This document shows positions 2,893 through 63,650 of a stretch of 64,000 nucleotides of DNA, piece by piece. The stretch lies in IMG/VR virus record IMGVR_UViG_3300027533_000013, positions 55,702-119,701 of that record, one strand, 5' to 3'. The notes below the pieces were generated by a model. That model was not told where the DNA came from, ran no database searches, and was given only the letters and a program-made list of their open reading frames with translations. Position 1 is the first letter of the stretch, and each line of letters starts with the position of its first letter. This DNA comes from a virus (Duplodnaviria > Caudoviricetes). The position numbers and the translations under genes are program-made.

Positions 2893-5800
2893 ATGAGTAA
2901 CGGCTCGTCCTCCGCGATGGAACTGAAAGTTCTGATCAGTGTGTTGCAGAATGGCACGGCTCTGCAAACGATGCTGGGTCAGGTCAATCAACTTTCTCAA
3001 GCTCTTTCGGCACTCCAACTCAAAGCAGCCACGGCAGGCGTAGCAGCGGGGGGTATTGGTGGGGGCACTGGGAACACCGCAGCGGCAATAGCCGCAGCCA
3101 ATGCCTTAGCGGCAGCGTCAGGTAATGCAGCGGCTGGAATTACTGGGGCAGGGGCGGCGGCAGCGGCTGCGGCTCCTAAGATGTTGACACTTGAACAAGC
3201 CGTCAATAAAACGTGGAGAGCTATACAGTTTTTAGCTGGAGGGTTTTTAGCTTACCAGAGTGTTCGGTTTATAAAAAACATTGCAGATGTTGCTGCAAGA
3301 ACAGAAGTTCTGAATACCGTATTGCACGTGGTGGCCCTCAATGCCGGGTATACGGAACAACAGATCGATAAAGTGTCCCGAGGTGTCCAGCGTTTGGGCA
3401 TCACTGCACAGTCAGCCAATCAATCGCTGACGCAGTTCCTGCAAGCCGGGTTGAAAATCGAATTCGCAGAACAATTGGCCCGAGCGTCACAGGATTTGGC
3501 CGTTGTTTCTGGGATGGACTCGTCGCAGACCTTCCAACGGTTGCTGGTCAACATTCAGCAGTTGGATACGTTGGGCCTGCGGCATATGGGCATCATTGTT
3601 TCCCGCACAGAAGCCGAAGCGAAGTTCGCAAATTCGTTGAAGACGTCAGTCAATGCTCTGTCACAGCGGCAAAAACAGGAATCCTTGATGATCGCTGTCA
3701 TCGAGAAGGCCCGTGGGCTGGAAGGAGCCTACGAAGCCGCGATGGGGAACGTCGGCAAGCAGTTGACGTCGTTGACTCGGTATACACAAGACTTGCGGAG
3801 TGAAATTGGTAAGCATCTGTTGCCAGCGTATTCCGCCATCATCTCGGAACTGTCGTTGTTTTTGTCCAAGATGCAGGATCTGGCGATTGCTAGTAGTACC
3901 AATATGGATTGGGCTGAAAGGCTAGCCACGGTTACACGAACACTGGCGCATTGGTTTTTTCAGGTTGTCGAAGTCATCATCAAGTACCGTCAAGCTATTT
4001 ACACCTTGGTTGCCGCGTACGGAGCGTACTGGGCTATTGTGACGGGTCGAGCGATCTGGGCACATCTCATTACGGTCGTTACAACGCTGACGACGAGCGT
4101 GCTCAGTTCGGCTGAAGCTATTGTGAAAGCGACACGAGCGACCTACGCTTGGATTGCCGCGTTGCAATTGTTACGAGGTGCTCAAGCGACTAATGCTGTC
4201 ACACAGACTGGGCAATTTCTGTTGTTTCCCATTGAAAAAGAAACTCGGTTGGTTACCGGTATTAAGTCGGTAGTGGGGTGGCTGAAGACACTCGGTCTGT
4301 GGTTACTTGAAGCCAGTCGAATTTCGTTGGTGCTACGTGCGGCATGGGCGGGTCTTGTTCCAATTGTTGCAGGATTGGGACTCCCATTGATTGGATGGAT
4401 CGCTGGCATAGTTGCGGCAGTAACAGCATTTGGAGCGTTTACCGTTGCTCTGGTGAAGTTCACATCGGTCGGAACGATGGTGTCTTCGGTCATCGATAAG
4501 CTCAGGAATGCTTTTAGTGCGCTGACGAGGATTGGTATTGGTGACAAGACATGGGAGGTGTTGACGAACGCGGCAAACACTTTTAGTGATTCCATCACGC
4601 AACTGAAGATCAATATGGAAGCTCTGTTCAGGGTAATGGAGCAACTGCCCGGTAATCCTGTCAATAAGGTGAAACTTGGGCTGTCCATTATTGATCTGGC
4701 GATAGACGTAGAAATCGCCAAAATCAAGAAATTGATCGAGTGGCTTGAAAAGCTCGGCATTATTAAGGTCAAGGCTCCAGCCCCCGGAGAACGTAGTGAG
4801 GAATCTCTACGGCTGGAGCAGCAACTGAATGATAAAACGGCTGAATTGGCAGAAGCCAAAGAAGCTGAGGAACTTGCCAAAACGGCATTCGGAGCGGCTA
4901 ATAAAGCCGGTAAATATTCAGAAATCAAGCGCACCGAAGAAGAACTAAAGAAGTTGTCCGAGGAAGTGAAGAGGTTGCTCAAGCAACGGGACGACCTCGT
5001 TGAAAAAAGTAGACAAACCGATCCTGAAGCCTTAGCAGCATCGGAAGCCCATGCCAGACGGTCGAAGTTTGAACAAGATTTGAACACTCTTGTTTCAGCG
5101 TCGAATGACGCCAAGACGAAGTTGTTGAAGGTCAATATTCTAGATGGCCTTATCACGACGAAAGAATTTGACGAGAAGCGTGGGCAATTGAAAGTGATAC
5201 TTGATGCCCTCGATAAGCTCCGAACTAGCGCGGCTCGTGCGGCAGGTATGGGGCGTACTGGGGCAGATGGAAGATTTGTCGCGCCACCGGGACAACCCGG
5301 CCTTACAACTCTCTCTGATGATTTACGAGGATTACGTGATCAGGCTTTGGCTAGTATTGAAGGAGCCAAAGTCATGTCGGGTGCTCCAGGCCTCATTTCA
5401 GATTTGAAGGGTTTTGATGAGGAGATGGCGAGGATACGACGCACCGTTACGTTGACGCCCAAAGATGAACAGTTGTTGCAGAATTTGGAACAGGTAGCAC
5501 GTCTGAGGGCAGAAGAAGGTGAACGCTCCGTATTGGCTCCGCTGACTGCGATTCGTAAAGCACGTTTTGAGGCTGTTGAGAAACAGTTGAGGAGCAGTCT
5601 GGAAGAACAGTTAGATATCCAAAAGAATGCGAATGAACAAGCGGAGACGATCAATAAAGAGTCACTAGAGCGTGGGTTGCTGTCCGTTCAGGAGTACTAC
5701 AACCGACGACGTCGAGCAGCCAGCGATGCGTATGGCATCGAATTGATGTTGGCGACTCAGAACGTCGAGGCGATGAAACGGAGAGTCGTTCAAGTTCGTG

Positions 5801-55545: not shown

Positions 55546-55746
55546 ATGCCGAGACAGATTGCACCACGGCTGGCGTCGGGAGAATCCCGTATTAACTGGG
55601 GTGGACGGTTACCATCACATGTGAAAGCGGCTTTGCGGGTGATTGCGCGAGACGAGAAGAAGTCGATGTCGTGGGTGATGGAAGAAGTCGTGATTGACTA
55701 TTTTTCGTTGAAGCGTCCGAAGTATCGCAGTCGGAAGGTGGCCTGA
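55546..55746 (+). CDS. Ribbon-helix-helix-like protein
   Basis: AGGAGG RBS; RLPSHVKAALRVIARDEKKSMSWVMEEVV. Confidence 0.6.
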   Translation: MPRQIAPRLASGESRINWGGRLPSHVKAALRVIARDEKKSMSWVMEEVVIDYFSLKRPKYRSRKVA

Positions 55747-58532: not shown

Positions 58533-58753
58533 TGCTCTACACGCTTACGCTCAAGCTGGAGGCATATCACAAGCCGTCTGAGTCGTGGCACGTCCATGAG
58601 GTCAAGCACGGGGTCCGAGCGGTGTCTCGGAAGCACGCGCTGAACAAGGGGCTGAAGGTGGTCACGTCGTGGCCGGGATATCAGGACCGGGTGAACGAAC
58701 CGGACTGGCAGGTGGGAGCGGAAGCCACACTTGACAAATCAGACCGGGCATGA
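58532..58753 (+). CDS. Hypothetical protein
   Basis: TAATG coupling. Confidence 0.5.
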   Translation: MLYTLTLKLEAYHKPSESWHVHEVKHGVRAVSRKHALNKGLKVVTSWPGYQDRVNEPDWQVGAEATLDKSDRA

Positions 58754-58759
58754 GATAAT
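58731..58759 (+). promoter_or_regulatory. Sigma70 promoter driving GGY-NN array A
   Basis: TTGACA-17-GATAAT with extended TG; the array starts 11 nt downstream. Confidence 0.75.
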
Positions 58760-58769
58760 TGTTTTGTTC

Positions 58770-58834
58770 GGTAAGGCTTGGTACGGTGGGCCTTGGCTGG
58801 GCACGGTGTGGTGGGGCATGGTTTGGTGCGGCGG
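58770..58834 (+). repeat. GGY-NN pentamer array A (13 units), putative guide RNA
   Basis: 12 of 13 units begin GGY; NN variable. Confidence 0.85.
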
Positions 58835-58855
58835 CTCATGGAGGAGCGGTTAAAA

Positions 58856-59713
58856 ATGACAAAACAAGCAACGATTCACAATCCAACAAATTTCGACCCG
58901 GCGAATTACGAGGTCGTTGACTATTTGGACAACAAGCGTCCCGGCTATTACGGTCAAGGGATGGAAGCGTTCGAAGCCGAAATCAAGTTCTGGGAAGCCG
59001 ACATGCTGAACACCTTCGGTGCCGACTGGCGCAAGAAGGTTCGTCGCTGCATCCATTGCGGCAACGGTCGCGTCCGCTGGATCACGGCCACCAAGTATCT
59101 CCCCACGGATGAGACGGTGGTCTTCGGGTCTGATTGCACGTCGCGGCTGGAGTTCGCCAACAAGATGGAGTGGAAGCTGGCCGTCCTGAAGTCCAAGGCG
59201 GAAGCGGGTCATGCAAAGATGAAGGTCTGGAATGCTCGTGTCAAGTTCCTTGACGCGAACCCAGCGTTCGTGACAGCCATCGAGCAAGCGAAGAACGACA
59301 TTCATGCGAAGAACAGCTTCGTGCATGACGTGATCAGCAAGCTGAACATCTACGGGAGCTTGAGCGAACGTCAAGTGTCGGCGGTGCTCTCGTCCCTGAA
59401 GCGCGACGTGGACACGGCAGCGGCCAAGGCAGTAGAGGCCATCGAGGTCAAGGGAGACGCCCCAGAGGGCCGCGTGACGGTCACAGGGGTGGTCCTGAGC
59501 ACGAAGCTGGTCGAGAGCATCTACGGGAATACCCGGAAGATGCTGGTCAAGCTGGAGAACAATTCGCGGGTGTGGGTGACTGCCCCGTCGAAGGAGCACA
59601 TTGAACGGAACGACACGGTGACGTTCACGGCGACGTTCACGGTCAGCAAGGACGACAAGAGTTTCGCGTTTGGTTCCCGGCCCGTGCTGGTGAGCCAAGT
59701 GGCGGCAGCGTAA
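58856..59713 (+). CDS. Phage protein with Cys motif and C-terminal OB-fold-like domain, between arrays A and B
   Basis: GGAGGAG RBS; CIHC...C; GRVTVTGVVLSTK...DTVTFTATF. Confidence 0.7.
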   Translation: MTKQATIHNPTNFDPANYEVVDYLDNKRPGYYGQGMEAFEAEIKFWEADMLNTFGADWRKKVRRCIHCGNGRVRWITATKYLPTDETVVFGSDCTSRLEFANKMEWKLAVLKSKAEAGHAKMKVWNARVKFLDANPAFVTAIEQAKNDIHAKNSFVHDVISKLNIYGSLSERQVSAVLSSLKRDVDTAAAKAVEAIEVKGDAPEGRVTVTGVVLSTKLVESIYGNTRKMLVKLENNSRVWVTAPSKEHIERNDTVTFTATFTVSKDDKSFAFGSRPVLVSQVAAA

Positions 59714-59716
59714 TGT

Positions 59717-59876
59717 GGCGGGGTAGGGCTAGGTGGGGTCTGGCAAGGTCTGGTGAGGCGGGGCTTGGCTATGTCGGGCGCTGTATGGTAAGGCGAGGTA
59801 AGGCACGGCGAGGGGTGGTAAGGCGTGGCAGGGCTGGGTCCGGTTTGGTAGGGTGTGGCGGGGCAGGGTAGGGTGA
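59717..59876 (+). repeat. GGY-NN pentamer array B (32 units), putative guide RNA
   Basis: 29 of 32 units begin GGY; strict 5-nt phase. Confidence 0.9.
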
Positions 59877-59879
59877 TGA

Positions 59880-59908
59880 TTGACATATTTCATCCTAGTG
59901 TGTAAGCT
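59880..59908 (+). promoter_or_regulatory. Sigma70 promoter driving array C and the RAMP gene
   Basis: TTGACA-17-TAAGCT. Confidence 0.75.
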
Positions 59909-59921
59909 ACCAACTCCGTGA

Positions 59922-60126
59922 GGTGCGGTCGGGTGTGGCAGGGTACGGAAAGGTGAGGCTAGGTGGGGTCAGGTCTGGCAGGGTCTGGTTTGGCAAGGTG
60001 AGGTTAGGTCGGGCACGGTAAGGCGTGGCGGGGTAGTGTCGGGCACGGTATGCCATGGCCGGGTGAGGCAGGGCAAGGTCAGGCAGGGTGCGGTCAGGCA
60101 GGGTGCGGTCAGGCAAGCCAAGGTAA
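59922..60126 (+). repeat. GGY-NN pentamer array C (41 units), putative guide RNA
   Basis: 37 of 41 units begin GGY. Confidence 0.9.
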
Positions 60127-60153
60127 GGGTTTTGAAAACAAGGAGTGTTGCAG

Positions 60154-60795
60154 ATGAAGGTAGTCAAGTGCAGGATTCAGGGTGTCGGGGCAGGATTGCT
60201 CATGCACAGGTTCCCGTTGGAACCGATTGAAGCCATCGAGAAGAAGACGGCTCAGGAGCAGGCAGAGATTTCTGCGTATCGTGATCCCGTCACGAAGTCG
60301 CTGTATGTTCCAGCGGTGAACATCCAGCGGTGTTTGGTGAACGGGGCGACGTTCAGCAAGGGGAAGGGCCGAGCGTCGTTACAGAAGCAGGTTGCGGCCT
60401 GCGTCATTGTGGGGCCGGAAGAGCGGTTGCCACTGTTGGCTGAGTACGAGATAGCTACGTGGGGTCTTTGCTCTGCCTACGAAGTGTCCAGCTTGTCGGT
60501 CGTTATTCCGGCCACGAAGGGACGAGTCCTTCGGCATCGTCCTCTGATCAAGAAGTGGGCAGTTCTGTTTGAGGTCGAGTATGACGAGCGGCTGTTGACC
60601 GAGGTACAGTTGCGGCGAGTCGTGGACGACTCAGGCACTCGTGTGGGGTTGCTCGATTTCCGTCCCGAGAAGAAGGGGCCGTATGGCCGATTTGTGGTCA
60701 CGCTCTGGGAGCCGTTGGGCGGTAAGGATGAACCGGAGTTGCCGGAAGTCGTGGACGAAGAGAGCGACGGAGCCGAAGAAGCTACTGAAGGGTAA
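60154..60795 (+). CDS. Stand-alone Cas7/RAMP-like protein (putative RNA-guided effector)
   Basis: AGGAG RBS; IQG...LLMH first strand; LYVPAVNIQRCL; G-rich loop GTRVGLLDFRPEKKGPYGRFVV. Confidence 0.8.
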   Translation: MKVVKCRIQGVGAGLLMHRFPLEPIEAIEKKTAQEQAEISAYRDPVTKSLYVPAVNIQRCLVNGATFSKGKGRASLQKQVAACVIVGPEERLPLLAEYEIATWGLCSAYEVSSLSVVIPATKGRVLRHRPLIKKWAVLFEVEYDERLLTEVQLRRVVDDSGTRVGLLDFRPEKKGPYGRFVVTLWEPLGGKDEPELPEVVDEESDGAEEATEG

Positions 60796-60799
60796 GGAT

Positions 60800-61189
60800 G
60801 GCTTGGTTAGGTCTGCCATGGCGGGGCGTGGCGGGGCCGGGTATGGCTAGGCGAGGTTTGCCATGGTGCGGCAAGGCGGGGCGAGGCATGGTCCGGTTCG
60901 GCGTGGCAAGGTTGGGTAAGGTGGGGTCAGGCATGGCACGGTGCTGTACGGCAAGGCGGGGCAAGGTTGGGCTAGGCGCGGTACGGCATGGCAAGGTGCG
61001 GTGCGGTTGGGTGTTGCGTGGCGGGGTTGGGTTCGGTGAGGTGAGGTCGGGTATGGCCGGGTCTGGCTTGGCGTGGTTTTGCGAGGTCTGGTGAGGTCAG
61101 GTGCGGTCGGGTAAGGCGCGGCGGGGTTAGGTTTGGCTTGGTAAGGCGGTGCCGGGTGAGGTCAGGTTGGGCAAGGCAGGGTGTGGTGT
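60800..61189 (+). repeat. GGY-NN pentamer array D (78 units), putative guide RNA
   Basis: 72 of 78 units begin GGY; no phase slip over 390 nt. Confidence 0.92.
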
Positions 61190-61190
61190 C

Positions 61191-61216
61191 AGGGCCGGGG
61201 GTAACATCCCGGTCCT
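61191..61216 (+). terminator. Hairpin closing array D (terminator or 3' handle)
   Basis: AGGGCCGGG/CCCGGTCCT stem followed by ATTT. Confidence 0.6.
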
Positions 61217-61237
61217 ATTTCCAAGGAGTGGAATAGG

Positions 61238-61756
61238 GTGAGCGCGAAAAGAATCGTGATGCTGGATTTCGACGGAGTCATCAACCGGGTGAGCAATATC
61301 GGGTATTACATCGGGACGGCATACGAGCCACCGATTGAGCGGCAGTTGGCCCTGCGTGTGGGCAACATGGTGAACAAGCTCGATGCGTCGGTGGTCGTGA
61401 GTTCGGATTGGCGGCACAGCTACACGCTGGCGGAACTGCGACAGTTTCTCGGGGACTACGCTGGCATCGCAGCCAAACGTGTCCTTGGAACGACGGAGCG
61501 GGGTGGTTGGAAAAGCGTCCGTGGGCAGGAGATTGAGAACTGGCTCAAGGAGGCTGGAGAGCCGGTGCGGCTGGCGGTGCTGGACGACAATCATCTTGGC
61601 AGGTTCAACATGGACCGGGTCAGACCATGGTTCGTGAAGACGACGCCACAGGTGGGTGTGTCCGAGGCGAATATCAAGGATGCGAGTCGGTTGCTGACGA
61701 CAGGGCCGATCTTCTCGATGCAATCAATTGCAGAGGGTGAATTGACAAACGCCTGA
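61238..61756 (+). CDS. HAD-family protein (Swiss-army-knife RNA-repair-like HAD)
   Basis: LDFDGVIN, VVSSDWR, RGQEI..WL, AVLDD. Confidence 0.85.
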   Translation: MSAKRIVMLDFDGVINRVSNIGYYIGTAYEPPIERQLALRVGNMVNKLDASVVVSSDWRHSYTLAELRQFLGDYAGIAAKRVLGTTERGGWKSVRGQEIENWLKEAGEPVRLAVLDDNHLGRFNMDRVRPWFVKTTPQVGVSEANIKDASRLLTTGPIFSMQSIAEGELTNA

Positions 61757-62744: not shown

Positions 62745-63650
62745 ATGTTCAAAGCCATGCTCGCAGGCAAGTTGGATGCCCCGTTCGTGGTTGCTAGAGG
62801 CCGGTTCCCGGTGCTCGCGTCTCCGAAGCTGGACGGTATCCGCGCCACCATCCAAGGGGGCGTCGTCATGAGCCGCAGTCTCAAACCTATCGCCAATCTC
62901 CACGTGCAAGCTCTGTTGAGTCGTCCTGAACTGGAAGGGCTCGATGGGGAGTTGATCGTGGGTGACCCCACGGCGGCAGATTGCTTCCGAGTGTCGTCCA
63001 GTGCGGTCATGTCGGTGGACGGCAAGCCTAATTTCGCCTTCCATGTGTTCGACAAATTTATGTCTGGCCCGTTCGCTATTCGGTTGGCGGAAGCGACGAA
63101 GGTGGTGGAGACGGTCAGTCTGCCCTACGTGCAGATGGTCCCCCACAATCTGGTCGAGGATCAAGACACGCTGATCAAGCTGGAAACGCTGGCGGTGGAT
63201 CTGGGCTATGAGGGTCTGATGATTCGGAGTCCGAAGGGACCATACAAGCAAGGCCGATCCACCAGCAACGAAGGCTTCCTGATGAAGATGAAGCGGTTCG
63301 TGGATGGTGAGGGCGAAGTGTTGGACCTGATCGAACAAGAGGCCAACAACAACGTCGCGTTCACGGACGAGCTAGGCCATACCAAGCGGTCCAGCCATGC
63401 GGCTGGCAAGGCGCTCAAGGGCACGCTCGGTGCCTACCTTGTCAAGAACCTAGAGACGGGCATCGTCCACAAGGTGAGTCCTACGGGGACGCTGGCGGAA
63501 CGTCAAGCCATCTGGAACGATGGTGGGAACTACATCGGGAAAATCGTCAAGTTTAAGTTCTTCGCGTCTGGGGGAAAAGACAAGCCGCGCTTTCCTCAGT
63601 TCGTCGGTTTCCGTGATGCGGCTGATATGGATGCAAAGGTGGTGGTGTGA
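62745..63650 (+). CDS. ATP-dependent DNA ligase
   Basis: KLDG, LDGE, FHVFD, YEGLM, KMK, PRFP. Confidence 0.93.
   Translation: MFKAMLAGKLDAPFVVARGRFPVLASPKLDGIRATIQGGVVMSRSLKPIANLHVQALLSRPELEGLDGELIVGDPTAADCFRVSSSAVMSVDGKPNFAFHVFDKFMSGPFAIRLAEATKVVETVSLPYVQMVPHNLVEDQDTLIKLETLAVDLGYEGLMIRSPKGPYKQGRSTSNEGFLMKMKRFVDGEGEVLDLIEQEANNNVAFTDELGHTKRSSHAAGKALKGTLGAYLVKNLETGIVHKVSPTGTLAERQAIWNDGGNYIGKIVKFKFFASGGKDKPRFPQFVGFRDAADMDAKVVV

Follow-up and report, generated by a model that had tools for sequence, protein, structure and literature searches.

The phage genome represented by IMG/VR record IMGVR_UViG_3300027533_000013 (Duplodnaviria; Caudoviricetes), a single CheckV-complete virus record of 119.7 kb, carries a genuine Viral Interference Programmable Repeat (VIPR) system, of a kind already published, near its right end in the early region. 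Coordinates given here refer to the stretch of 64,000 nucleotides that was analysed (positions 55,702 to 119,701 of the record), hereafter the window. The locus comprises four arrays of GGY-NN pentamers, designated A to D, and a gene for a 213-amino acid (aa) Cas7-like protein, Vipr. Very probably, the system is carried on an insertion of ~1.5 kb together with an array in the 5′ untranslated region (UTR) of the adjacent gene, and array A is directed against the allele of that gene found in kin phages, such that a Vipr filament silences the rival DNA while the phage's own allele is spared.

VIPR is a Cas7-like RNA-guided DNA silencer, in which Vipr, a minimal RAMP protein, polymerises on vrRNAs composed of GGY/NN repeats, each repeat taking up a single protomer. 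Double-stranded DNA (dsDNA) is read by the NN bases with one base skipped per repeat, and binding leads to repression of transcription. The natural targets are competing phages, with targets on both strands and the skipped bases at wobble positions, and the ribonucleoprotein (RNP) shows competitor-resistant dsDNA binding and silences from either strand. Seven types have been named, and layouts may be tailed, "staggered", ribozyme-interspersed or single-guide; the threshold used for a target is an 80% match of the NN bases, and many vrRNAs were left targetless (bioRxiv 10.64898/2026.04.26.720920; 10.64898/2026.04.26.720927). The concept is only months old, and natural targets are known for few clades only. 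A sequence-only reading of the window had proposed that each subunit binds one GGY and presents NN in a CRISPR-independent RNP, had brought up the name VIPR, and had raised the possibility that this kind of system is novel. The system of that name is real (.720920,.720927), and the proposed architecture agrees with it, the locus having passed those family tests that can be run on sequence; with publication in April–June 2026, the system is not novel in kind.

The guide of array A and its target in kin phages

Array A (58770–58834, plus strand) consists of 13 units, 12 of them GGY, and is situated in the 5′ UTR of a gene encoding a 285-aa protein (58856–59713, plus strand). Targets were sought by replacing each GGY with one wildcard (the 1-nt skip, or skip-1) in every 10-unit window of the four arrays. 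Among the loci of relatives, array A matched 20 of 20 bases under skip-1, versus 16 for the skip-0 and skip-2 controls. Extended to units 1–12 (58770–58829), the match comprises all 24 bases on the minus strand of one relative (L022:4833–4867), with the same site in a second (L023); unit 13, which would coincide with the ATG, is mismatched. The bases read are positions 1 and 2 of codons 2–13 of a 286-aa rival gene, the orthologue of the window's 285-aa gene (82% identity), with each skip falling on a wobble position. An exact copy of this gapped 24-base pattern also occurs in two IMG/VR and two metagenome contigs, at the same codons of the same gene, giving six target-bearing contigs in all, and one variant differs at a skipped base only. 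By a rough estimate, the first local search would yield a 24-base match by chance with a probability of ~1e-7. Additionally, when 1,789 guide units from all VIPR loci analysed were compared against 815 kb, the sole perfect runs of at least eight units were the target matches of array A, all of them with skip-1; skip-0 and skip-2 yielded none. Searches of IMG/VR with five other gapped patterns (20–24 bases) returned no match.

The exact target peptide is encoded only by the closest orthologues (79–81% identity), with more distant ones retaining 8–11 of the 12 codons, and the guide is thus directed at close relatives. With the phage's own allele, the guide agrees at 17 of 24 bases (71%; site 58859–58893), below the 80% threshold of the VIPR paper. 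Searches of the phage's own genome for self-targets gave a best score equal to that of shuffled controls, and reciprocal targeting of this genome by the arrays of relatives did not rise above noise.

By homology to the solved SUSP1 complex, Vipr protomers would polymerise on the array RNA, one per pentamer, with each protomer sequestering GGY by way of H18, R129, D168, F169 and R170 and leaving NN exposed. The exposed bases would then pair with dsDNA in the reading NN-x-NN-x. During co-infection, the filament formed on the rival's early gene would be expected to block transcription, while the diverged own allele would be spared, amounting to an RNA-guided exclusion of close kin. The target site lies ~35–70 nt downstream of the rival's promoter (TTGACA-17-GACAAT) and appears to begin ~35 nt after the transcription start, as judged from that promoter.

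The same complementarity could be used at the level of RNA, where a vrRNA antisense to codons 2–13 of the rival mRNA would block translation initiation or destabilise the message. The guide does read as the minus strand and is hence complementary to both the coding strand and the mRNA; its site abuts the start codon, and the Csm3 subunits, the closest structural relatives of Vipr, bind RNA targets. However, the published competitor-resistant binding of dsDNA, silencing from either strand and targets on both strands argue against action on RNA. Strand preference cannot be read from a single target, and the promoter-proximal site fits repression of DNA equally well; little probability is assigned to this version. 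Array A might instead serve as a cis element of its own 5′ UTR, for example in Vipr-dependent control of the 285-aa gene, with the complementarity to kin a relic of the array's origin. It is situated ~20 nt upstream of its own orthologous site, where the match of 17 of 24 bases is kept, and rivals that share the promoter and UTR (L022 and L024 have a homologous promoter) have no array there. A relic would nevertheless decay together with the phage's own gene, and the residual match to that gene is under the published threshold, whereas selection acting on the rival sequence would be expected to give a complete match to the rival with tolerance at wobble positions only. A mainly cis role is regarded as very improbable.

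Several points weigh against the silencing of kin DNA by array A with the own allele spared. The six target-bearing contigs are homologous and so constitute one evolutionary observation. The own allele is not significantly more diverged at the target than in the rest of the gene, where 40–47 of 276 windows are equally diverged, and a signature of escape is thus not significant. Searches for targets of arrays B–D returned nothing from the phage's own genome, from complete rival records (91 kb) and kin loci (430 kb), or from IMG/VR and GTDB genomes, and a target is known for only one of ~13 guide-equivalents. The arrays also do not have the invariable structured 3′ tail that caps characterised vrRNAs, which bears on whether and how they would be processed, and the match of the targeted protein to the IF1/SSB OB fold in Foldseek is weak (E ~2e-3).

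The Vipr protein and its relatives

The single vipr gene of the genome (60154–60795, plus strand) follows an AAGGAG ribosome-binding site and encodes a Cas7-like RAMP protein of 213 aa. The open reading frame, the LLMH segment and the G-rich loop to which the sequence-only reading had drawn attention are all present, and a check of the fold found Csm3 subunits to be the closest structural relatives, in keeping with the proposed RAMP character. Its 1,073 homologues are mostly ~176 aa in length. A profile built from 31 homologues matches PDB entry 36pp_D, "SUSP1 Vipr protein", with an E value of 2.2e-10 (PDB 36pp; structures in bioRxiv 10.64898/2026.04.26.720927), and direct BLASTP comparison of the two proteins gives 2e-11, with ~35% identity over the C-terminal 60 residues. 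Searched by tblastn, the window Vipr matched phiSUSP1 and ~120 related phages. The GGY-reading residues of SUSP1, H17, R138, D177, W178 and R179, align to H18, R129, D168, F169 and R170, all of them invariant or almost invariant across an alignment of 31 family sequences, and SUSP1 residues K33 and E71/M72 are unalignable or different. Pfam, NCBIfam and PADLOC returned nothing for Vipr, the only match being phrog_4652, a family of unknown function. The predicted absence of other cas genes is borne out in the complete genome, where neither Cas1 nor a canonical Pfam RAMP gene was matched. The TRF output contained no CRISPR-like repeats.

The window Vipr and its three closest relatives share an acidic, disordered C-terminal tail of ~30 aa (residues ~185–213; 60706–60795). 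This tail is absent from the ~176-aa majority, and the subclade bearing it has the longest arrays (62–78 units). A 10-aa insertion in the thumb region (residues ~97–106) is common to the window Vipr and its 90%-identical relative P0001. On the contig of P0001, a 306-aa gene call (P0238) appears to run through a promoter and an array-A-like stretch into the 285-aa orthologue, and the phage of P0001 may have a 5′ UTR array too.

Arrays flank vipr on its own strand in 19 of the 20 relatives from viral or metagenome sequences and in every one of the 10 from metagenome-assembled genomes (MAGs), the latter assigned to Chloroflexota, Verrucomicrobiota, Planctomycetota and two archaea; the association that the initial reading had asked of homologues is seen in 29 of 30 loci. 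The sole exception (L018; Vipr 37% identical) carries a degenerate NGCNN array of period 5 at 4560–4660, with units such as TGCAA and CGCAT, which the GGY detector missed. In one MAG relative (L067), an example of the layout described in the literature, six guides of 9–15 units are each followed by the same ~63-nt hairpin tail. The Chloroflexota MAG relatives (L067:3795–4440; L072:3683–3966) have a CRISPR-like regularity, with guides of 9–17 units and conserved hairpin tails of 50–63 nt starting GGATA. Another relative, L001, has ~314 units around one vipr gene.

The insertion and its uninterrupted arrays

Absence of VIPR can be checked in three rivals with enough flanking DNA (L024, L025 and L027). 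These are syntenic with the window, with a small upstream gene, the 285-aa gene, a gene of the HAD family, a 120-aa gene and a ligase gene in order, and they carry neither vipr nor arrays; the HAD gene begins within ~15 nt after the 285-aa orthologue. Because these VIPR-less siblings keep the 285-aa gene beside HAD, the gene is a backbone gene and VIPR the insertion. On this comparison of sequences, the VIPR module is a rare insertion of ~1.5 kb between the 285-aa gene and HAD, accompanied by the ~60–65 nt of array A placed in the 5′ UTR behind the shared promoter. A role for the 285-aa gene as a vap accessory was considered and rejected on the same grounds, and a further 26 kin loci (430 kb) carry the gene without VIPR. 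It has 240 homologues in a large group of phages of ~95–124 kb, and no family of neighbouring proteins accompanies vipr across 19 loci. The model of the 285-aa protein (pLDDT 88) comprises a zinc ribbon, long helices and, at the C terminus, an OB fold; a sequence search of the PDB gave nothing useful for it. Downstream of the module, the window encodes a HAD_SAK_2 phosphatase-like protein (61238–61756; Pfam E 2e-22) and an ATP-dependent DNA ligase (62745–63650). The contig of one relative also encodes Ku, and the phage group has an end-joining/repair module adjoining the VIPR insertion site.

Two transcription units are predicted within the module, all on the plus strand. The first would begin at promoter P1 (58731–58759; TTGACA-17-GATAAT, TG-extended, 11 of 12 consensus positions), which drives array A and the 285-aa gene and from which array B (59717–59876; 32 units, 29 GGY), starting 4 nt past the stop codon of that gene, is probably co-transcribed. 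The second would run from promoter P2 (59880–59908; TTGACA-17-TAAGCT) through array C (59922–60126; 41 units, 37 GGY), vipr and array D (60800–61189; 78 units in a single unbroken phase, 72 GGY, with the terminal motif GGCAA GGCAG). It would end at a terminator-like hairpin (61191–61216; −22.7 kcal/mol) followed by a short T tract (TATTT), the whole spanning 61191–61221 and closing the module. The hairpin after array D had been noticed from the sequence at the outset, and a similar one follows the last array in L022. Arrays A and C had both been described as starting after consensus promoters, which holds for P1 only: P2 has a weak −10 box (3 of 6 positions), was missed by a consensus scan, and is conserved yet not consensus, ~38 nt being identical in L022 although the flanking arrays differ.

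Across the four arrays, 150 of 164 units begin with GGY (138 of 151 in arrays B–D), exactly as first counted in phase 0. A sliding scan requiring at least seven GGY in 10 units at period 5 recovers only these four stretches from the 64-kb window, all on the plus strand, which upholds the original impression that such arrays occur nowhere else in it; there are none elsewhere in the 119.7-kb genome. Open reading frames can be read through the arrays, as would be expected if the pentamers were coding repeats or merely chance low-complexity DNA with no RNA-guided system behind them. A period of five is, however, incompatible with codons, and in 30 of 30 relatives the arrays are strand-specific and confined to the neighbourhood of vipr, versus one match of the detector in 634 kb of VIPR-free control DNA (both strands, the rest of this genome included). 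The protein, moreover, is homologous in sequence to a Vipr of solved structure, and the notion of chance or coding repeats can be taken as already refuted.

All 16 dinucleotides occur at the NN positions of the 164 units. Among these, CC and TC are strongly depleted (2 of 164 each in the window; 2.4% and 2.7% family-wide, in 50 arrays of relatives) and AA is enriched; a pyrimidine followed by C may be structurally disfavoured ahead of the next GG, or CCGG may be avoided. In arrays of the window's Vipr clade (L001–L022; 61170–61189 in the window), the last three units carry AA or AG in 50–66% of cases versus 23% overall, and GGG or GGA directly follows 23 of 50 arrays, such that the conserved terminal motif is GGCAA GGCAR GGG. 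The tails of SUSP1 likewise begin with GGG. A general use of NN as codon positions 1 and 2 was tested and is not supported, the fit over 164 units being only 0.03 bits per unit above genome background, although array A does spell codons. Degenerate units (TGY, GCC) were rejected as punctuation between guides, since one of them, GCCTT, forms unit 5 of the fully matching guide in array A, and the conserved block C17–28 contains two more.

With 78 units, array D is the longest array seen, against a family median of ~16. No repeated 3′ tail was found after arrays A–D, the terminal hairpin being the only such structure, and no phase shift occurs within the window's arrays. Rfam searches detected no ribozymes or known RNA families in the window or in the loci of 19 relatives. 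TRF reports tandem duplications inside the arrays at 60008–60128 and 60900–61006, with a period of 15, 30 or 55 nt, the copies of which differ mainly at NN and Y positions; this suggests that guides arise by duplication and divergence. Comparison with L022 reveals blocks in which NN is identical, namely units C1–7 and C17–28 (12 of 12 units in the latter, with Y drifting between C and T), and a largely conserved block, D63–73, while the remaining units have mostly been replaced between the two. The 12-unit guide of array A, the conservation of 12 of 12 units in C17–28 and an 11-unit (55-nt) internal duplication in array D together point to a functional module of ~12 units.

Arrays B–D (151 units) probably represent additional guides of ~12 units against targets outside the searched databases. 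Most of them could alternatively be repeats expanded by slippage, or decoy RNA that titrates Vipr, whether the phage's own or that of a rival, with few functional segments. Their internal duplications, the absence of targets, tails and processing signals, and lengths 2–5 times the family median would all follow from such an origin. On the other side, the retention of GGY in 138 of 151 units indicates a scaffold under selection, and the NN bases of C1–7, C17–28 and D63–73 persist from one phage to the other even as Y drifts. In an uncultured phage, a failure to find targets is to be expected, and the published vrRNAs are in many cases targetless too. Expansion or decoy as the main explanation of these arrays is judged unlikely, and additional guides remain the preferred account.

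Relation to known systems and significance

The closest characterised counterpart is the type II VIPR of Escherichia phage SUSP1 and a Pseudomonas fulva prophage. Both share with the window a homologous Vipr with corresponding GGY-contact residues, GGY/NN arrays on both sides of vipr and on its strand, a natural target read by the 1-nt-skip rule with skips at wobble positions, and a phage-encoded system aimed at competing phages without self-targeting. The window differs in that its operon has no conserved vap accessory gene, its arrays are uninterrupted runs of 13–78 units whereas those of SUSP1 have 9–16 units each capped by an invariable pseudoknot tail, and one guide resides in the 5′ UTR of a protein-coding gene. 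In the window Vipr, the bundle region, which carries K33 in SUSP1, is shorter and unalignable, and an acidic C-terminal tail is present. As far as the description of the "staggered arrays" goes (figure S18 of the VIPR paper, where they are not experimentally confirmed), these resemble the window in that contiguous arrays abut without a tail, but differ in the phase shift that the window does not have. Among the relatives, L001 (3978–4164, 5939–6370) and L014 (3721–3966, 4701–4921) have abutting arrays offset by 1–2 nt and may be candidate instances. Relative to the Cas7/Csm3 proteins of type III, IV and VII systems, the window has no CRISPR repeats, cas1, cas10 or other cas genes and no Pfam RAMP match. 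The effectors also differ in their reading, with a period of 6 nt of which 5 pair in Cas7/Csm3, and a period of 5 nt with two pairing bases and dsDNA as the published target in VIPR. Thus, the locus is not assigned to the class 1 CRISPR–Cas effectors, as it has neither cas genes nor a repeat-spacer array and resemblance of fold alone is insufficient.

In the "marker exclusion" exerted by homing endonucleases between T-even phages, an agent specific for the rival's allele is encoded beside the phage's own resistant allele. By analogy, the window would place a rival-allele-specific agent next to its own resistant allele of a common gene; the agent predicted here is an RNA-guided binder without a nuclease, for which repression would be expected rather than cleavage or gene conversion. 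A more speculative extension, which has perhaps an outside chance of being right, is that the tail-less mega-arrays of up to 78 units are continuous guide libraries without processing signals, and that the rival guide and resistant own allele together form a marker-exclusion cassette spreading among kin by recombination. If true, such a cassette would follow a selfish-element logic not described for VIPR.

What is new in this locus is the exact target in kin phages next to a non-matching own allele, the VIPR-less siblings that define the insertion, and the tail-less mega-arrays. The locus provides an independently derived confirmation of the 1-nt-skip code from an unrelated environmental phage lineage, and its 13-unit guide and 36-bp site make a compact test system for mismatch tolerance and for the discrimination of self from non-self. 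The phage group provides a natural experiment, in which the siblings without VIPR have sensitive alleles and the carrier has a non-matching allele with the guide adjoining it, in support of a role for VIPR in the competition of phages with their very close relatives.

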